Origin: Pirellula staleyi DSM 6068
GTDB lineage: Bacteria > Planctomycetota > Planctomycetia > Pirellulales > Pirellulaceae
NCBI GenBank assembly: GCA_000025185.1
Contig: CP001848.1
Span: forward strand, 6,060,001 to 6,092,000
Reading direction: 5' to 3'
DNA length: 32,000 bases
This document shows, one piece after another, positions 22,320 to 30,811 of the stretch. A program made the position numbers and the translations under genes. Every line of letters begins with the position of its first letter. Within the stretch, counting starts at the first letter, position 1. The notes beneath the pieces were generated by a model. It ran no database searches. It had not been told where the DNA came from and saw only the letters and a list, made by a program, of their open reading frames with translations.

Positions 22320-23453
22320 TTACGAAGTTTTGGGCCGTTTGTAAAACGGAAGGGAAACAACGCGAGCCGTTTCCATAGTGCCGCGAATATCGACGGCCAG
22401 TTCGGTTCCGACAGCGGCCAGTTGTGGCTCAACGTAAGCCATGGCGATTGCTTTTTGAACCGTGGGTGCAAAAGCGCCGCTGGTGACTTCCCCTACTCGC
22501 TTGTCGCCGGAGTAGACCGCATAGTGCTCGCGGGCAGCGCGACGGCCAGCCAGTTCGAGACCGACACGGACAGGTCGCTCTTTGTCGGCGCGACGATTCA
22601 GAATCGCTTGACGCCCCAGAAACTCGCGACCTTCGAGGGTCACTGCGAAATCGAGCCCCGCCTGCAGCGGATCGAGCGATTCAGAGAGTTCGTGGCCATA
22701 AAGGGGCATCGCGGCTTCAAGACGCAGCGTATCGCGTGCGCCAAGTCCGGCCGGCGCGGCACCGACACTCACCCCATGCTCGAGGCATTTGTCGCAGAAA
22801 TCTTTCGCTGCCTCAGCTGGCAGGATCACTTCGCAGCCATCTTCACCCGTGTAACCCGTGCGGCTGACAATGCCTGGCTTGCCGCAGATGGTGGTTTCTG
22901 TGCCGGTGTAGTACGAGAGTCCGCCGACATCCACACCCACCAGCGGTTCGACCACAGCCAAAGCCTTAGGACCTTGCACGGCGATCATCGCGGTTTCGAG
23001 AGTTCGGTCGTCGAGCGTCACGTCGCCGGAGGCTGGAAGATGTGCCTGGAAATGGCTCACAATCTTGTCGCGGTTGCTCGCATTCACCACGACGAGGGCA
23101 TAGAGTCCGCCCCCATGCTGCTGCAAATGGTAGACGAGAATATCGTCGAGAATTCCGCCTGCTTCGTTGCAAACGAGGCCGTAGCGAATCTTTCCAGGAC
23201 CCATGCCAGCCACTTTACGAGTGACAAGCGAATCGAGGTATGCGAGAGCGCCTGGTCCTTCGACACGAAGTCGACCCATGTGCGAGACATCGAAGAGACC
23301 GGCCTTGTTGCGGACGGTGTTATGCTCTTCGACGATCGAGCCGTATTGAACCGGCATACTCCAGCCGGCGAAATCCACCATGCGACCACCGCGGGCAACG
23401 TGCCAATCGTGAAGCGGCGTTTGACGAAGCGACGCGGTCATCGAGCTTTCCAT
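22320..23453 (-). CDS. gcvT: Glycine cleavage system aminomethyltransferase T
   Basis: LRQTPLHDWHVARGGRMVDFAGWSMPVQYGSIVEEH..VRNKAGLFDVSHMG. The start is taken at ATG 23453 (MESSMTAS...). ATG 23441 is equally possible. The ORF-track start at 23597 adds an implausible N-terminus. Confidence 0.93.
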   Translation of the reverse strand: MESSMTASLRQTPLHDWHVARGGRMVDFAGWSMPVQYGSIVEEHNTVRNKAGLFDVSHMGRLRVEGPGALAYLDSLVTRKVAGMGPGKIRYGLVCNEAGGILDDILVYHLQQHGGGLYALVVVNASNRDKIVSHFQAHLPASGDVTLDDRTLETAMIAVQGPKALAVVEPLVGVDVGGLSYYTGTETTICGKPGIVSRTGYTGEDGCEVILPAEAAKDFCDKCLEHGVSVGAAPAGLGARDTLRLEAAMPLYGHELSESLDPLQAGLDFAVTLEGREFLGRQAILNRRADKERPVRVGLELAGRRAAREHYAVYSGDKRVGEVTSGAFAPTVQKAIAMAYVEPQLAAVGTELAVDIRGTMETARVVSLPFYKRPKTS

Positions 23454-23738
23454 GAAGCGAGGCCCAAGGTTCAAGGAAGGCGGAGAGTCGGACAACCTCG
23501 TGAAGAGAAGTGCGAACGCACGTTCCCCACGGGTGGATGCCGACAACGCTTCCCAAGACGGGCGGTCGCGGTGGTAATAGGATGTTAAAGAGCACAAATC
23601 AGAGAACTTCGTGCATTCTAACGCTCGGGCGGACGCTTGCTAGGGGCAACGGGGGACAGAAATTCGGTCGTCCAGTGATAGGCCAATAAACCTTGTCCGA
23701 GGCTTGACTTCGCCACGAAATCTGCCGACAATCTAAAT

Positions 23739-23778
23739 AGTTTTGACTGCCCAAAACTTGTTTTTCTACAAACAAAAC
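23739..23778. promoter_or_regulatory. Tandem palindromes GTTTTG-N6-CAAAAC and GTTTTT-N7-CAAAAC (candidate metalloregulator operators)
   Basis: Read directly: AGTTTTGactgccCAAAACT (23739-23758, 7-bp arms), then GTTTTTctacaaaCAAAAC (23760-23778). They lie 52-91 bp upstream of the ATG of the metal-binding lipoprotein gene, in an AT-rich patch of the 376-bp divergent region. Confidence 0.3.
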
Positions 23779-23829: not shown

Positions 23830-24828
23830 ATGATTCGAGTTATGGGAAGTGCGGCTCATCCGCTGGTGTCCTTTGTCTCGCTCGCAATCCTGCTGCTGGC
23901 CCTGACAGCAGGATGTGAGAAATCAGCGAGTTCGTCGATTTCAGCCATACCGCCAGCAGATAGCATCGACTTTACCTTTCGCCGTAAATCGGCCCCTCAG
24001 CCGATCAAAATCGTTTGCACGACCGGCATGGTGGCCGACCTGGTCCGTAACGTCGGCGGCGACGAGGTGGAAGTGACGCAGCTGATGGGAGCTGGCGTCG
24101 ATCCGCATCTCTACAAAGCTTCGCCGGGGGATGTCGCCAAACTCTCGTCGGCCGATATGGTTTTCTTCTCCGGCTGGCATCTCGAGGGGAAGATGTCGGA
24201 GTTTCTCGCGCGGCTATCAGCCTCGCGCCCCAGTGTGGCTGTGGCCGAGGGGATCAAGAGCGAAAAACTTTTGAGCGACGAGCAAGGTCTGCACGATCCC
24301 CATTTGTGGTTCGATGTGCAGCTTTGGTCGCTCGCGGCAGCTCGTGTGAAAGAGGCGCTCGCTCGATTCGATCCCGAGCGCGCCGAGGGGTACGAGCAGC
24401 GACTGGCCGATTATCAAAAGCGACTCGAAGAACTCGACCAATACGCCCGCGAAAAACTTGCGACGATCCCTCCGCAGTATCGTGTAATGGTGACTGCCCA
24501 CGATGCGTTTCGCTACTTCGGCCGGGCCTACGATTTGGAAGTTCGCGGCATTCAAGGACTCTCAACCGACAGTGAAGCGGGAGTGCGGCAGATCAACGAA
24601 CTCGTCGATTTTCTCGTCGCGAGAAAGATCAAAGCCGTGTTTGTCGAATCGAGTGTGTCGGATCAAAATATGCGTTCGCTGCTCGAAGGTTGCGCTGCAC
24701 AGAATCATCCTGTCGTGATAGGTGGCGAACTCTACAGCGACGCGCTCGGTAGCGAAGCAAGTGGCGCATCGACTTATGAGGGGATGGTTCGCCATAATGT
24801 CGACACGATTGTGAAAGCTCTCGAGTAA
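23830..24828 (+). CDS. Metal ABC transporter substrate-binding lipoprotein, cluster A-I (TroA/ZnuA/MntC/YtgA family)
   Basis: Lipobox LALTAGC. IKIVCTTGMVADLVRNVGGD, GVDPHLYKASPGD, LHDPHLWFD, VTAHDAFRYFGRAY, VFVESSVS and ELYSDALG. The putative ligand set is His/His/His/Asp (TroA-like), and there is no His-rich ZnuA loop. Confidence 0.92.
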   Translation: MIRVMGSAAHPLVSFVSLAILLLALTAGCEKSASSSISAIPPADSIDFTFRRKSAPQPIKIVCTTGMVADLVRNVGGDEVEVTQLMGAGVDPHLYKASPGDVAKLSSADMVFFSGWHLEGKMSEFLARLSASRPSVAVAEGIKSEKLLSDEQGLHDPHLWFDVQLWSLAAARVKEALARFDPERAEGYEQRLADYQKRLEELDQYAREKLATIPPQYRVMVTAHDAFRYFGRAYDLEVRGIQGLSTDSEAGVRQINELVDFLVARKIKAVFVESSVSDQNMRSLLEGCAAQNHPVVIGGELYSDALGSEASGASTYEGMVRHNVDTIVKALE

Positions 24829-24875
24829 GCATGTTTCCAGCCAGCCACGTCTCCCCTGCCCGCTAGTTGCTCCCC

Positions 24876-25652
24876 ATGTCACCCGCCAAGCCTCCGGTTC
24901 TCGACATTCACGACGTCACGGTTGCCTATCATCGCAAGCCGGTGCTCTGGAACGTCGACCTTGTGATGCCCGAGCCACAATTGGCGGCAATTGTCGGCCC
25001 TAATGGAGCGGGCAAAAGCACGCTGATCAAAGCAGTGCTGGGACTCGTGCCGATGGCAGGTGGCAATGTGAAAGTGCTGGGTGAAGATGTGTCGCGCGTG
25101 CGTCAGCGCATCGGCTATGTGCCACAGCGAGAAAGTGTCGACTGGGACTTTCCGGTCACCGTGCTCGATGTCGTGCTGATGGGAACCTACGGCCGCTTAG
25201 GATGGCTCCGCCGCCCCGGAAATGCCGAGAAATCGTGGGCTCGCGAGTGCCTGGCTCGCGTGGGGCTGGCAAGTCTCGAGCAGCAGCAAATCGGGCAACT
25301 CTCGGGGGGACAACAGCAGCGAGTGTTTCTCGCACGTGCTCTGGCGCAGCGGGCTGATGTCTACTTTATGGACGAGCCGATGGCAGGGGTCGACGCCGCG
25401 ACCGAGCGCATTATTTTCGAACTCCTGAGTGAACTGCGCCGCGAGGGTCGCACCATCATTGCTGTCCATCACGACCTACGCAGTGTGCCACGCTATTTCG
25501 ATTACGTCGTGCTGCTGAACGTTCGCAAAGTCGCCTCGGGACCGATGAAAGAAACCTTCACCGACGACAACTTACGCAAGACTTATGGTGGCCGACTCGC
25601 GGTGCTCGATGCCGCCGCTGAAGCAATTGAGTCGCACGAGGCGCAGCGGTGA
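24876..25652 (+). CDS. Metal ABC transporter ATP-binding protein
   Basis: Walker [10 protein letters not shown], signature [15 protein letters not shown], Walker [14 protein letters not shown]-loop VHHDL. ATG 24876 is preferred over TTG 24867. The stop TGA overlaps the next start (TGATG). Confidence 0.93.
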
Positions 25653-26965
25653 TGTTCTACTACAACACCATCGTCGTACTTGCGGGGGTCGGTTTGCTCG
25701 GAGCAGGGAGCGGACTAGTTGGCGCTCTCGGTGTCTTGCGGCGGCGCTCGCTGCTCGGAGATGCCCTCGCCCACGCTTCGCTCCCGGGAATCTGTCTCGG
25801 ATTTCTCGTCGCTGGCTCGCGCAACATTCCGCTGATGATGCTTGGAGCACTCGCAAGTGGCGTGCTGGGAATCGTTGCCATCGGCGCTTTGTCGCGCTAC
25901 ACACGCATCCGCGAAGATTCTTCCATCGGCATCGTTTTGAGCGTCTTTTTTGGGCTCGGCGTGGTCATGAGCCAAATGATTCGCAACCACACGCAGCATG
26001 GCAGCACTGCGGGGCTCGAGTCATATATCCTTGGCAAAACCGCAGGCATGACACGCGGCGATGTCTATGGAATTCTCGCGATCGCGATCGCTTGTGTCGT
26101 GCTGGTGGTGCTGCTGCACAAAGAGCTGAAACTTGTCGCCTTCGATGCCGATTTCGCCAAGTCGCTCGGCTGGCCGGTCTATGCCATCGACCTGGCGCTC
26201 ATGACACTCATCGCGCTGGCGGTCGTCGTGGGACTGCATGCTGTGGGTGTGGTGCTGATTGCCGCCATGCTCATCATGCCGGGTGTGAGTAGCCGCTTCT
26301 GGACCGATCGTTTCTCGACACTCCTTCTGCTCTCGGGCATTTTGGGCCTGTTTATTGGCGTGATCGGAACGATGATCAGTGCCGAATATCAGTTGATGCC
26401 TGCCGGGCCACTGATCGTGCTGACAGGAAGCACGGTGTTTATGTTTTCGCTTTTGTTTGGAACGCGACGTGGACTCATCGCGCGCGGCATTGCAGCGTAT
26501 CGCTATCAGCAGCATTACGCCCGGCGACAGCTACTCGTTAAGCTCTTCGATTTTCTCGAGAAAACGAATTTCCAGTCGACAGAGATTTCGCTCGACGACT
26601 TGGCGATTGCCAGCCAATCGACCGCACGCAGTATTCGCCAAGCGCGCGATCAGATGGTGGTAGCCGGACTGGCCAACTTCACGGCGTCTAAAAAGTTCGA
26701 ACTCACCACCGATGGACTCGTGGCTGCACGCGATGCCGCGCGCGACGAGCGACTCTGGTTTGAGTATCTCGTGGTCTACCCGGAACTCTCGTCGCAAGTC
26801 GACCTCAGCGTGAGCTCGATTCGCGATCTGGTTGACGATTCCATCGTGGTCAAACTCGAACGATCACTCAAGACAGCCGCGATTTGGCCCGAGATTCCCT
26901 CGCGACTTCCGACACCTGTGCTAGAGAAGAATCAAGACATTTCCTCGACCACGGGGAGACCTTGA
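25652..26965 (+). CDS. ABC-3 family metal permease fused to a C-terminal DtxR-like winged-helix/dimerisation module with non-conserved metal ligands
   Basis: The permease core (LLGDALAHASLPGI..., ~275 aa) is followed from ~26490 by ~155 aa. By eye these align to the DtxR N-terminal and dimerisation domains (..ISLDDLAIASQSTARSIRQARDQMVVAGL..FELTTDGLVAARDAARDERLWFEYL..). The start overlaps the upstream stop (GTGATG). Confidence 0.85.
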   Translation: MFYYNTIVVLAGVGLLGAGSGLVGALGVLRRRSLLGDALAHASLPGICLGFLVAGSRNIPLMMLGALASGVLGIVAIGALSRYTRIREDSSIGIVLSVFFGLGVVMSQMIRNHTQHGSTAGLESYILGKTAGMTRGDVYGILAIAIACVVLVVLLHKELKLVAFDADFAKSLGWPVYAIDLALMTLIALAVVVGLHAVGVVLIAAMLIMPGVSSRFWTDRFSTLLLLSGILGLFIGVIGTMISAEYQLMPAGPLIVLTGSTVFMFSLLFGTRRGLIARGIAAYRYQQHYARRQLLVKLFDFLEKTNFQSTEISLDDLAIASQSTARSIRQARDQMVVAGLANFTASKKFELTTDGLVAARDAARDERLWFEYLVVYPELSSQVDLSVSSIRDLVDDSIVVKLERSLKTAAIWPEIPSRLPTPVLEKNQDISSTTGRP

Positions 26966-28410
26966 TGCACGACCCAGCAAACGAGAACCGCGTCACGACA
27001 GCCTGGTCGCGCAACCGTAGCGATGCTGTTTGGTTGATGCTCTACCTCACCTGTGCTGCGATTGTCGCCGCGCTGGCGAGCTATAGAACCATCGACGACA
27101 CGAATCGCCTCCTCGCGCTACGCACCATGGCGATCGGTGTTTGCTGCGGTGCGAGCTGCGCGCTAGTGGGATGCTATCTCGTCCTTCGCAAAATGAGCCT
27201 GCTTGGAGACGCAATCAGCCACTCGGTGCTGCCTGGCATCGCCATCGCCTATTTTCTCACAGGCCAAGTCACTGGCTGGCCACTCCTGGCGGGAGCGATG
27301 GTGGTGGGTGTGCTGACGAGCTTTCTCACGCAAACAATTCACTGGATCGGTCGGGTCGCGGAAGATGCCAGCATGGGGGTCGTCTACACCACGCTGTTCG
27401 CGGTCGGCGTGATCATGATGCAGACCTGGGCTCCGCGTGCGCATCTCGATGCTGACTGCGTGCTGTATGGGCAAATCGACTATGCGGCCGCTGATCTAGC
27501 CTCCCTAGCAGGCTACGATATCCCCCGCTCCCTTTCGCTTTTGGTCCCTGTGCTTGGCGTCGTGCTGCTCCTGGTCGTAATACTCTGGAAGCAGCTGAAA
27601 GTGACTGCTTTCGACCCCGCCCATGCCACTGCCATGGGAATTCCAACGGCGGCGATTCACTACATTCTGATGGCAGCCGTGGCTGTTGTGTGCGTGGCGT
27701 CCTTCGAGTCGGTCGGCTCGATTCTCGTCGTCGCCATGCTGATTGTTCCCGCCGCCACGGCTCAGCTGATCGCCGACCGCTTGGTGTGGATGATGGTATG
27801 GGCAACAGCAATCAGCTGCGTGAGCGCGGTGCTTGGCACACTGGTCGCATTTTCGCTCGACACCACGGTGGCAGGTGTAATTGCGGTGGTGAGCGGACTA
27901 CAGTTCGCGATTGCGGTGTTCATTGCGCCACGCCAAGGGCTAGCGAGCAAATGGCTTCGAAATTTGTCACTTGCCATCCGCATTCGGACCGAGGATTTCC
28001 TCGCGAAGCTCTACCGCCATGAAGAAACGCCGCTGACTTCGCCCATGGCCACCACCACCTCCCTGCTCGACCACATTGCAGTGTACGTGGCCTGGCGACG
28101 CGATTTGATTGCACGTGGCGCGCGAGGTGTCTGGAAGCTGACCGACTCGGGTCTGGAATCGGCACAGCGTGTTGTGCGAGCCCACCGGCTGTGGGAAGCG
28201 TATCTCGACACGCACTTCGACTTGCCGCGAGACCACTTGCACGAACCGGCCGAGTACATGGAACACTACTTAAGCGAACCGCTACAGCAGGAAATCGATG
28301 CGGAACTCGCAGGTCGTAGCATCGATCCCCACGGCAAACAGATTCCCGCCCTTGCCCCTCGCAAACCGGCCGAGAGCGCGAGTGAAATCCGCGACAACCA
28401 GAAACGCTAA
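26965..28410 (+). CDS. ABC-3 family metal permease fused to a C-terminal DtxR/MntR-family metalloregulator module with intact ligand positions
   Basis: The permease core (LLGDAISHSVLPGIAIAY...) is followed from ~27946 by ..WKLTDSGLESAQRVVRAHRLWEAYLDTHFDLPRDHLHEPAEYMEHYLSEPLQQEIDAELAGRSIDPHGKQIP (Fe_dep_repr_C-like). ATG 26965 overlaps the upstream TGA (TGATG). The ORF-track start at 26884 would overlap the previous gene by 82 nt. Confidence 0.88.
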   Translation: MHDPANENRVTTAWSRNRSDAVWLMLYLTCAAIVAALASYRTIDDTNRLLALRTMAIGVCCGASCALVGCYLVLRKMSLLGDAISHSVLPGIAIAYFLTGQVTGWPLLAGAMVVGVLTSFLTQTIHWIGRVAEDASMGVVYTTLFAVGVIMMQTWAPRAHLDADCVLYGQIDYAAADLASLAGYDIPRSLSLLVPVLGVVLLLVVILWKQLKVTAFDPAHATAMGIPTAAIHYILMAAVAVVCVASFESVGSILVVAMLIVPAATAQLIADRLVWMMVWATAISCVSAVLGTLVAFSLDTTVAGVIAVVSGLQFAIAVFIAPRQGLASKWLRNLSLAIRIRTEDFLAKLYRHEETPLTSPMATTTSLLDHIAVYVAWRRDLIARGARGVWKLTDSGLESAQRVVRAHRLWEAYLDTHFDLPRDHLHEPAEYMEHYLSEPLQQEIDAELAGRSIDPHGKQIPALAPRKPAESASEIRDNQKR

Positions 28411-28443: not shown

Positions 28444-29568
28444 TTAGCCAATCAACGGCTCGCTGACGGTGCTGCTGCGAGCGATCAACTCACCCGGCAC
28501 CACCACTTTCATCGGCGGCGCGCCGACACTTTTGCGACGCCAGCGCATCACATCCAGCGCTCGTGCCGCTACGGTTTTGGCAGGGTAGGTATAGGCGGTA
28601 ATCCCAATCGAGAAACTCTCGCCCAGCCCCAGGCTATAGAACGCCGCTACAGCCGTATCGGTGGGAACCGACTTTCCTCGACGCAGCAGCTCCATCACCA
28701 CCCCGATCGCGGCGTGCTCATGAAAACAGATCACACTGTCGGCCTTCCAGGCGATAAGTTGATCGGTGAAATCGGTGTAAGTGGCCCCCACGGTTTTCGC
28801 GGTCGATTGGCCAATCACTAGCGAGTCGCTGATCCCCGCCGAATGCAGCGCCGAAAGATAGCCGGCGAGTCGTTCCACGTGGCTGCTGGTGGGTGATCCA
28901 GTCAGAAATGCAATCCGTTTACGCCCCAGCTCCAGCAAGTGACGCGTGAGCAGACGTCCCCCCTCGAAGTCGTGAAAGCTCACCAAATCGTGCTCGAGCG
29001 GGCGATCTTCGCCACGCAGGTTCCGTTCGATCAGCACGACCGGAAGCCCCAGCTCATCGCAGGTGGCGATCAACGTCTCATCGAGTCGCATCGCCTCATC
29101 GCTAACGCGCGAAGGGAGCAGAAAAATTCCTTTGGCCCCCTGCTCTTTCGCGGCGAGAACCCCCGCGCGAATCTTTTCAGCGCTCGCCTCGGGTGCCATC
29201 CGCAAACTATCGAAATCAAACGTCACACTCTGCTCGCGGGCCAGCTTGCGGAATCCCTCTGCTGTCAACTCAGCCGCCGCATGCTGATGCGGCCCTGGCG
29301 AAACGTGCAAGCAAACCGCCATCCGCTCGGCTACGGCGTTTGACCTCGATCCATCGCTCCCCGTCATTTCACTCTGGCCACCCAGTTCATTGCGAAACAA
29401 CTGCAGGGCTCGCGAGGCAGTGACACTCGAAACCCCAAACTGACTCGCCACCTTCCGCACGCTCGGAGCAGGATCGCTCGCCGTGGCCCGGCGCGATCGC
29501 ACTAAAAGTTGCTCAGCAATCTGCACGTACATCGGTCGCGTATCGGTCGTCATGGGACTGGCCTGCAC
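28444..29568 (-). CDS. AraR-like transcriptional regulator: GntR-type winged-HTH + LacI/PBP1-type sugar-binding sensor domain
   Basis: N-terminal YVQIAEQL...PSVRKVASQFGVSSVTASRAL (GntR HTH). The C-terminal part has periplasmic-binding-protein-like blocks (GIFLLPS.., LPVVLIER.., RIAFLTGSPTSSHVERLAGY.., ADSVICFHEHAAIGV.., ITAYTYPAKTVAARA). Alternative starts are at M6 and M13. Confidence 0.8.
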   Translation of the reverse strand: MQASPMTTDTRPMYVQIAEQLLVRSRRATASDPAPSVRKVASQFGVSSVTASRALQLFRNELGGQSEMTGSDGSRSNAVAERMAVCLHVSPGPHQHAAAELTAEGFRKLAREQSVTFDFDSLRMAPEASAEKIRAGVLAAKEQGAKGIFLLPSRVSDEAMRLDETLIATCDELGLPVVLIERNLRGEDRPLEHDLVSFHDFEGGRLLTRHLLELGRKRIAFLTGSPTSSHVERLAGYLSALHSAGISDSLVIGQSTAKTVGATYTDFTDQLIAWKADSVICFHEHAAIGVVMELLRRGKSVPTDTAVAAFYSLGLGESFSIGITAYTYPAKTVAARALDVMRWRRKSVGAPPMKVVVPGELIARSSTVSEPLIG

Positions 29569-29794: not shown

Positions 29795-30811
29795 ATGTCT
29801 TCAAGCCAATCACTCGAGGCTACTATGCTCTCCAGGCCGATCCGCTCAGCACGCCGCCACCGTCTCTGCGGGTTTACGCTCGTGGAACTCCTGGTGGTGA
29901 TCGCCATCATCGGCATCCTGGTCGGACTCCTGCTGCCAGCGGTTCAGATGGCCCGCGACGCTGCCCGGCGCTCGCAAAGCCAAAACAACCTCAAGCAAAT
30001 CTGCCTCGCCACCCAAAACTTCGAACTGGCTCGGCGTTTCTACCCACCGGGCTTCGTCTGGAGCAACAGTCACTACAACTCCCCAGGCTTTACCGACGGC
30101 TCTCTCTTCCTACAGATCCTGCCGTATGTCGAAGAGGTGAATCGCCTACAGAAGGCGGAAGATAACAACAGTGCTTTCTACGCCATCACGTACGAAAGCC
30201 TTCCGCCGAAGGTGATGATGAACCCTTGCGATCCAACGCTCCCTAGCAATGGCTCGCAGTACCACCCCGGCACAAAGATCAACTATGCCGTTGGCTGCTA
30301 TGCCGCCAATGCCCAGGTGTTTGGCTGCATCACGAAGAACAACGCCAATAGAGCGTTCCCGGCGACCGTGCGAACGCATGTTCCTGCTTACGTGCTCGAC
30401 GGACTTTCAAACACCATCGGATTCGCCGAGAAGCAGTCGATTTTGCGGAGCACCACCAGCTATAGCGAAGTGACCTATTTCGCTTACTCCAACACCAACT
30501 ATGTCGGTCACATACCTGTCTTCGCGATGAAGCAGTCCGACATCATCACCCCGATTCGCTACGCCGGTTCGGGCAGTCTCGCGGTCCCCGCGAACGCCGT
30601 GGGACCTGAGTCAAAGTTTCAAATCACTCCGAAAGTGAGTGGCACCGTGAATCTTGCTGATTGGCAGCGGTGCCACGCCCCACGTTCTTCCGGCATCATG
30701 GTCGCACTGCTGGATGGCAGTGTCCGCATGGTCAGCAGCAGTGTGGATAAGAACGTCTGGTGGGGTGCTGTTACACCGCAAGGGAAAGAGATACTTGCGA
30801 GCAACTGGTAA
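29795..30811 (+). CDS. DUF1559 protein (pilin-like N-terminus, divergent C-terminal motif)
   Basis: [45 protein letters not shown]. The C-terminal ...[14 protein letters not shown] keeps the DG(S)VR core, but there is no His nine residues before the DG; the nearest is 12 residues before it (H-X12-DG). An alternative start is ATG 29825. Confidence 0.88.

Follow-up and report, generated by a model that had tools for sequence, protein, structure and literature searches.

Paired DtxR-like modules on both permeases of a TroA-type metal importer in Pirellula staleyi, and their possible role as a transporter-attached metal-sensor pair

Fusions of a permease to a repressor have been understood from YtgC-YtgR of Chlamydia trachomatis alone, and have been assumed to be repressors that are made with the transporter and then cut loose. 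In the chlamydial ytgABCD operon, YtgC carries the YtgR domain, and YtgC and YtgD together form the permease (PMC5599777). In Treponema, a DtxR-like unit lies directly after the second permease gene, in the order troD-troR (PMC2628430). Here we analyse a 32,000-nt stretch of the genome of Pirellula staleyi DSM 6068 (Planctomycetota), hereafter the window, in which an initial annotation had pointed to an operon for a TroA-type metal importer with both ATP-binding cassette (ABC) permeases fused to DtxR-like modules. We refer to these modules as tail 1 and tail 2, after the permease that carries them. Tail 2 is ligand-complete and tail 1 is not.

The P. staleyi operon resembles ytgABCD in its gene order (substrate-binding protein (SBP), ATPase, permease, permease), in joining an ABC-3 permease and a C-terminal DtxR-like domain within a single open reading frame (ORF), and in its host, which belongs to the Planctomycetes–Verrucomicrobia–Chlamydiae (PVC) group, as the initial annotation had stated. 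As in YtgR, the metal-ligand columns of DtxR are kept in a fused domain. That an ABC-3 permease can be fused to a DtxR-like domain is already known; the double fusion and the asymmetric decay of its two modules appear to be new. Our searches of the open-access literature turned up no account of either, nor of the observations given below that speak against DNA reading. 'Permease subunit/Mn-dependent DtxR family transcriptional regulator' already occurs among JGI protein names; the two P. staleyi permeases match deposited entries at or near 100% identity, ADB19318.1 and ADB19319.1, which are titled just 'ABC-3 protein' or 'metal ABC transporter permease'. Our preferred reading, which we hold tentatively, is that the two tails act as a transporter-attached metal-sensor pair and not as a classical repressor.

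Two homologous modules of unequal state

The operon lies on the + strand, and TGATG overlaps join the genes at both permease junctions (tgATG at 25650-25654 and 26963-26967), just as first annotated. Both permeases continue past the ABC-3 domain, for which the Pfam match ends at residue 270 in permease 1 and at residue 319 in permease 2; the C-terminal extensions noted earlier are real, with lengths of roughly 167 and 160 aa. Conservation of length in more than 100 homologues rules out that the fusions stem from a mis-called ORF or a frameshift. The permeases and their parts are as follows.

25652-26965, + strand: permease 1, whole gene, 437 aa from the ATG
25652-26461, + strand: ABC-3 membrane domain of permease 1, residues 1-270 (PF00950, E=1e-60 over residues 8-270)
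26462-26965, + strand: tail 1, residues 271-437 (family profile against DtxR-family structures in the PDB, E=6e-11)
26965-28410, + strand: permease 2, whole gene, 481 aa
26965-27927, + strand: N-terminal extension and ABC-3 domain (residues ~46-321) of permease 2 (PF00950, E=4e-51 over residues 53-319)
27928-28410, + strand: tail 2, residues 322-481 (PF02742, E=1e-19, above the curated cut-off)

Tail 2 is clearly a two-domain DtxR/MntR module that lacks the SH3 domain. A phmmer search against the PDB matched Mycobacterium tuberculosis MntR (5zr4, E=2e-12) and DR2539 (E=4e-12), and also SloR, ScaR, IdeR and DtxR. The AlphaFold2 (AF2) model of the tail, with a predicted local distance difference test (pLDDT) score of 86.9, gave Foldseek matches to DR2539, MntR, SloR and IdeR at E=4e-8 to 1e-5; it superposes on these and on DtxR with root-mean-square deviations (rmsd) of 2.4-3.5 Å, and with 2.4 Å for both IdeR and DtxR. 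In this model the linker helix and helix 1 (H1, which carries D344) are followed by helix 3 (H3), the wing and the metal/dimerisation domain; a Pro/Thr-rich coil occupies the position of helix 2 (H2), with H3 and the wing after it. Among homologues the H2 segment is a variable low-complexity loop, and only from its sequence does tail 2 of the related locus L006 seem to retain an H2-like segment.

The initial annotation had placed the motif AHRLWE-x14-H-x3-E-x2-EH of tail 2 in the DtxR ligand columns. This placement is exact: the motif supplies H407, E411, H426, E430, E433 and H434 (nt 28183-28266), and these six residues, together with D344 in the column of DtxR M10, are invariant in 95 of 95 homologues. 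The metal/dimerisation domain also holds a DPHG motif. The reported replacement of Cys by Glu in the C102 column is likewise present (E430), and Asp occupies the M10 column. Glu at C102 together with Asp at M10 is the pattern of Mn-responsive members of the DtxR family, and it is from this family pattern that the Mn-type reading derives. We conclude that the ligand set of tail 2 is complete, putatively of the Mn type, and very strongly constrained.

Tail 1 is far more diverged. As a single sequence it had no match in Pfam or the PDB, and a BLASTP comparison with tail 2 gave only E=0.039. A profile of 43 tail 1 sequences matched structures of DtxR, IdeR and MntR at E=6e-11 to 1e-8 over DtxR residues 11-127, spanning the DNA-binding and dimerisation domains, and 34 of the 43 family members matched PF02742. 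Aligned with hhalign, the tail 1 and tail 2 families matched at 98.7% (E=2.8e-16) across 143 columns, the linker among them. The possibility that tail 1 is a generic MarR-like winged helix was ruled out by these profile matches to DtxR structures and to tail 2. The earlier assignment of both tails to the DtxR family is borne out, by PF02742 for tail 2 and by the profile and hhalign matches for tail 1. The Pfam scan proposed for the two proteins was only partly as anticipated: PF00950 was found in both and PF02742 in tail 2, with no PF02742 match to tail 1 alone and no PF01325 match in either. We conclude that the two tails are homologous DtxR/MntR-like modules, each of two domains without SH3.

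The AF2 model of tail 1 (pLDDT 91.4) consists of a single long helix made up of the linker and H1, a complete H2-turn-H3-wing and a reduced second domain; the tail ends in a C-terminal extension that is not conserved. Its best Foldseek matches were IdeR and DtxR, at E of about 1e-3. The ligand columns of tail 1 hold E366, F370, D384, S388, R391 and D392, with Q293 in the M10 column. The initial annotation had listed these six columns as E, F, L, S, D and L. The letters require correction to E, F, D, S, R and D, since one residue is deleted in P. staleyi tail 1 compared with the rest of its family, which shifts the last four columns by one; the accompanying claim, that tail 1 lacks a DtxR-type site, holds. 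With neither His nor Cys in the ligand columns, and with Phe and Arg at two of them, this residue set is incompatible with DtxR-type metal sites. We conclude that tail 1 is a decayed paralogue, with its winged-helix fold intact and no metal site of the DtxR type. In each tail, a continuous helix joins the module to the last membrane helix.

Distribution and constraint among related loci

Related loci (designated L) were collected in part by scanning genomes and metagenomes with a narrow alignment of 10 tail 1 sequences. The scan recovered 9 genome and 16 metagenome loci, together with many ordinary Firmicutes DtxR genes that we took as controls; the locus sample is modest and is biased by the search patterns. 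Both permeases were tailed in 21 of the 22 related loci where this could be checked. A tail 2 permease comes directly after the tail 1 permease in the window, in L068 (a close relative), and in L001, L003-L009, L069-L072 and L089, and the same pairing occurs on eight metagenome contigs (L074, L077, L080, L082, L083, L085, L086 and L088). The loci with paired tails come from metagenome-assembled genomes (MAGs) of Pirellulaceae/Planctomycetaceae (L001, L003-L005), from Phycisphaerae (L006, L009) and from a Chthoniobacterales MAG (L008); the L069-L072 set takes in one MAG labelled Deltaproteobacteria, and L089 is a distant representative.

Tailed homologues of permease 1 (~420-440 aa) and of permease 2 (~460-490 aa) are abundant in Planctomycetota. 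With tail 2 as query, at least 458 representatives (50% clusters) were found at E<=1e-10. Among the best 150 tail 2 matches listed, the full-length proteins (~415-495 aa) have the matching part at the C-terminus; the others mostly look like gene fragments. Because the architecture recurs in dozens of independent loci, it is not a chance product. The initial annotation had taken such fusions to be characterised essentially only in Chlamydiae. Their occurrence is far wider: besides the large number of tail 2 representatives found here, permease–repressor fusions have been reported in 11 phyla (review, PMC5599777). Nor is the double fusion confined to this genome; across the sampled loci it appears to be the rule in Planctomycetota and relatives.

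The two tails differ sharply in how their ligands have fared. Tail 1 is ligand-rich in Phycisphaerae-type loci (L006, L009, L069-L071 and L089), where both tails are ligand-rich, and in 120 homologues of L006 permease 1 H, E, D, D, E and H in the six ligand columns of tail 1, and one further His, are nearly invariant. Tail 1 ligands have been lost in Planctomycetia, in L008 (Chthoniobacterales) and, independently, in L072. Tail 2 ligands, unlike those of tail 1, have not been lost in any lineage compared. Given that tail 1 is ligand-rich in Phycisphaerae-type loci and has lost its ligands elsewhere, P. staleyi tail 1 is a derived, decaying paralogue.

Some lineages have gone further. Proteins of ~800 aa (P0123-P0135) consist of a permease 1 core, a low-complexity linker, and permease 2 with tail 2, in one polypeptide; in place of tail 1 they have a covalent connection between the two permeases. 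In the metagenome locus L091 (1-330), permease 1 stops ~25 residues after a PKRG linker without any DtxR-like module, and the next permease carries a complete tail 2, making this a single fusion on the second permease. The loci form a clear evolutionary series, from two ligand-rich tails through a decayed tail 1 to loss of tail 1, and the double fusion is therefore old. The 'sensor plus pseudo-sensor' arrangement suggested in the initial annotation fits these comparative data.

Two further observations concern the permease genes of this sample. Residues 21-39 of P. staleyi permease 2 (27025-27081) form, by hydropathy, an extra hydrophobic helix outside the ABC-3 domain, which bears on the topology of the fusion. 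The Phycisphaerae orthologue in L006 (425 aa) is without this N-terminal helix, and in the ~800-aa fused permeases it connects the two membrane domains. At L069:5825-7207 the tail 2 region is split over two frames, reflecting either a frameshift in a long-read assembly or a pseudogene.

The candidate operator and the DNA-reading surface

The upstream region of the operon contains two features relevant to its control.

23704-23732, + strand: sigma-70-like promoter, TTGACT-17-GACAAT (sequence scan; conserved in the close relative L068)
23740-23778: two AT-rich interrupted palindromes directly 3' of the -10 box, likely operator, GTTTTGACTGCCCAAAAC and GTTTTTCTACAAACAAAAC

The first palindrome has the core TTTTGA-N4-nCAAAA at 23741-23756, and the second lies at 23760-23778. 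TTGAC-type -35 boxes occur at the equivalent place in L001-L005, and the promoter and operator of P. staleyi and L068 are nearly identical. A TTTGA-N4-TCAAA core is kept, in position, in L068, L001-L005, L009/L088, L069, L075, L079, L080, L083 and L085. In L006 (~2300-2345) and L086, the sequence upstream of the SBP gene has GTAGC-N4-GCTAC in place of TTTGA-N4-TCAAA; the replacement resembles the E. coli MntR box, ATAGC-N4-GCTAT. Elsewhere in the 32-kb window the operator pattern had one weak additional match, not above chance, and the leader upstream of the SBP gene matched no Rfam family, whether riboswitch or other RNA. Position and conservation make the palindromes at 23740-23778 a likely operator.

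We compared conservation across the tails with that expected of proteins that read such an operator. No match to PF01325, the N-terminal helix-turn-helix (HTH) family, was found in either tail or in ~360 homologues. Conservation in tail 2 reaches 3.4-4.0 bits/column in the linker helix, H1 and the metal domain, at or above the 3.3 of the membrane core, and is lowest in H3 (2.45) and the wing (1.9). The same two segments score lowest in tail 1, at 1.7 and 1.65 bits/column. In the stand-alone Firmicutes repressors from the same scan, H2-H3 ('IAPASVTEML') is almost invariant, a control that is qualitative, those sequences being more alike overall. The constraint on the tails is inverted relative to that on true repressors, in that the metal site and linker are favoured over the DNA-reading surface.

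The recognition helices also do not follow the operator. Tail 1 H3 is dissimilar from locus to locus among loci with a common operator, and in tail 2 H3 the MAGs with the operator of P. staleyi differ from this species at charged positions. For the pair P. staleyi and L068, the nonsynonymous divergence (dN) of tail 1 is 0.44 overall, 0.82 in H2-H3-wing and 0.80 in the C-terminal extension, and that of the permease 1 membrane domain is 0.089; because synonymous divergence (dS) is saturated for this pair (>1.5), we use these dN values by rank order only. The recognition helices neither co-vary with the palindromes at 23740-23778 nor stay conserved alongside them.

Stand-alone DtxR-family genes adjoin the double-fusion operon in three distinct relatives, represented by four loci of which two are near-identical (L009/L088, L071 and L072). 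The regulators at L071:1987-2667 and L072:7221-7901 have PF01325, PF02742 and FeoA/SH3-like domains, and that of L071 is the first gene of the operon. The gene at L009:1243-1908, a 222-aa ORF that is also present in L088, is divergent and shares the intergenic region that bears the palindromes; it was assigned by its match to the tail profile alone. The initial annotation had envisaged the tails as a DNA-binding regulator at the palindromes. Taken together, the lack of PF01325 matches, the missing H2 in the model of tail 2, the variable H3 and wing, the recognition helices that differ among loci with one operator, and the adjacent DtxR genes do not favour this role.

The rest of the operon and its surroundings support the identification of the importer.

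23830-24828, + strand: SBP, a TroA-like periplasmic metal-binding protein of cluster A-I (PF01297, E=3.5e-81; 1TOA, E=2.7e-81)
24867-25652, + strand: ABC ATPase subunit (PF00005, E=8e-29), whose stop codon overlaps the permease 1 ATG

The SBP is ~50% identical to Treponema pallidum TroA (1TOA), and in the alignment of the two proteins three His and one Asp, the metal-ligand set of TroA, are identical. The ATPase (261 aa) matches the core ABC domain only, without a fused substrate-binding regulatory domain. With these aligned SBP ligand residues, two PF00950 domains and one PF00005 domain, the operon belongs to the TroA/cluster A-I importers, in agreement with the original designation.

On one side of the operon lies a divergent gene for a glycine-cleavage T-protein (22320-23597, - strand), which in L068 is followed by gcvH and gcvP, and on the other a gene for a LacI/periplasmic-binding-type regulator (28444-29568, - strand). 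Both flanking genes are syntenic in L068 and have no evident tie to the importer. Further downstream, the ORF at 29795-30811 (+ strand) begins with a prepilin-type methylation motif, and its L068 counterpart matches N_methyl and SBP_bac_10; proteins of this type are frequent in Planctomycetes and unrelated to the importer.

Attached sensor or repressor

Weak constraint on the DNA-reading parts, the mismatch between recognition helices and operator, and the adjacent DtxR genes lead us to favour an attached sensor pair over a released repressor. The pairing of the tails points the same way, because a released homodimeric repressor would need one fusion only. In the proposed mechanism, the permease heterodimer would present the tails to the cytoplasm in a 1:1 ratio, and hence as a single DtxR-like pair with pseudo-symmetry. 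Tail 2 would bind the imported metal, of the Mn2+/Fe2+ type, when the cytoplasm is replete, and the resulting change would travel to the transporter itself along the linker helix, which is rigid, highly conserved and the site of the ligand D344. We infer an output to the transporter because the D344 helix runs unbroken from the membrane and is conserved like the membrane core. The output might alternatively go to a partner protein; it would not go to the operator. Tail 1 would serve as a structural partner, a pseudo-sensor that is dispensable in some lineages, and transcription of the operon through the palindrome at 23740-23778 would more likely be controlled by a separate regulator.

Several observations weigh against an attached sensor pair. 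Chlamydial YtgC-YtgR, the one relative to have been characterised, undergoes cleavage and represses its own operon in an Fe-dependent manner (PMC5599777, PMC6504234). The winged-helix domain is kept in every tail and has not been deleted, tail 1 retains Gln at the position of DtxR Q43, and tail 2 H3 is Arg-rich. The ~800-aa proteins and L091 show that tail 2 can do without tail 1, and a heterodimer is therefore not obligatory. Neither in the 32-kb window nor beside any Pirellulales-type locus did we find a stand-alone DtxR gene, which may leave tail 2 as the sole protein of the DtxR type there. Finally, we know of no ABC importer with a substrate sensor on its membrane subunits.

These points overlap with the case for a released repressor of the YtgR kind, in which tail 2 would be cut off, homodimerise and, with Mn2+/Fe2+ bound, repress at the palindromes, leaving tail 1 as a vestige or weak modulator. 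We regard this as possible, if doubtful. It has an experimental precedent in Chlamydia and a family of fusions in 11 phyla behind it (PMC5599777), and it would account for a complete and invariant tail 2 ligand set on a DtxR fold that lies within 2.4 Å rmsd of IdeR and DtxR, for a retained winged-helix fold, and for an AT-rich palindromic candidate operator that overlaps or follows the -10 box and is conserved across loci. That tail 1 is dispensable in some lineages, and that no stand-alone DtxR gene is near any Pirellulales-type locus, also sit well with it. Yet such a repressor would have to read its operator without a PF01325-type domain, with H2 replaced by a variable low-complexity loop, with H3 and the wing as its least conserved parts, and with an H3 that is not kept between P. 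staleyi and MAGs that share the operator. It also leaves unexplained why both permeases are tailed in 21 of 22 checkable loci, why both tails are ligand-rich in Phycisphaerae-type loci, and why canonical DtxR genes lie beside such operons.

Degeneracy that is complementary in Planctomycetia, where tail 1 has a full winged HTH and no ligands and tail 2 has the ligands and no H2, raises the prospect of a heterodimeric DNA-binding regulator, membrane-tethered as in the initial annotation or released, to which tail 1 would contribute DNA reading and tail 2 metal sensing. The 1:1 synthesis of the tails and the Gln at the Q43 position of tail 1 are consistent with this. We nonetheless think it unlikely: a symmetric palindromic operator suggests that it is read by two equivalent heads, there is essentially no constraint on the recognition helix of tail 1 (1.7 bits/column, and dN=0.82 relative to L068, in which the operator is nearly identical), and tail 1 has been lost in some lineages. 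To a different scheme, sequestration, we give very little weight. Here the tethered tails would heterodimerise with a soluble DtxR-family repressor, by way of the dimerisation domain common to both, and so couple its availability to the abundance or state of the transporter. The stand-alone DtxR genes that adjoin the operon in L009/L088, L071 and L072 could supply such a partner, and conservation in the tails is highest in the dimerisation/metal-binding domain; but no stand-alone partner lies near Pirellulales-type loci, and the dimerisation domain of tail 1 is reduced in the model.

The attached sensor pair, which we continue to prefer, has a bolder form that we offer as a speculation, and as one that may well prove wrong. 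The DtxR fold would have been turned into a built-in metal gauge, the pseudo-symmetric tails shutting import directly, by trans-inhibition through the membrane subunits, once cytoplasmic Mn/Fe is sufficient. Transcription would be left to a separate canonical repressor, and chlamydial YtgR would be a special case of an older and widespread sensor module.

Whichever reading holds, the fusions prove to form a far larger family, found in free-living bacteria and with the module on both membrane subunits. If the tails regulate the importer directly, they would add a new mode of control to the cluster A-I metal importers, a group of importance in pathogens, and would clearly exemplify the repurposing of a transcription factor. 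If they are released repressors instead, the role of a ligand-free DtxR paralogue remains a question. In both cases P. staleyi, which can be cultured, provides a model that is not an obligate intracellular bacterium.

Compared with known systems, the P. staleyi arrangement departs from each in a different respect. In Chlamydia the tail is on the first permease, and the second permease, YtgD, is not known to carry one; in P. staleyi both permeases are tailed, with the ligand-complete module on the second. DNA binding and release by cleavage have been demonstrated experimentally for YtgR, whereas the HTH of the P. staleyi tails is degenerate or unconstrained. Treponema troABCD-troR is close in other ways: TroA is ~50% identical to the P. 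staleyi SBP with its four metal-ligand residues conserved, T. pallidum TroR, like tail 2, has two domains and no SH3-like domain, and in both systems a sequence with dyad symmetry lies at the promoter, as the operator in Treponema and as the likely operator in P. staleyi. The DtxR-family Mn/Fe repressor TroR differs in that it is soluble, is not joined to a permease and has a functional DNA-binding domain, whereas the P. staleyi unit is fused in frame and a second copy sits on permease 1. The troD-troR gene order is a plausible precursor of the permease 2 fusion.

The two-domain Mn-sensing proteins DR2539, M. tuberculosis MntR, SloR and ScaR are the best matches to tail 2 in sequence and fold. 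They are free dimers with conserved recognition helices, whereas tail 2 is membrane-anchored, has a variable H3 and, in the model, lacks H2. The logic that we propose for the tails has its closest parallel in the C2 domain of MetN and the regulatory domain of ModC, which sense substrate and mediate trans-inhibition of ABC importers; in both cases a cytoplasmic domain of the transporter binds the substrate and shuts import, as the tails hypothetically would. The MetN and ModC domains are on ATPase subunits and have unrelated folds, whereas the candidate sensor of P. staleyi is a transcription-factor fold carried on the membrane subunits.

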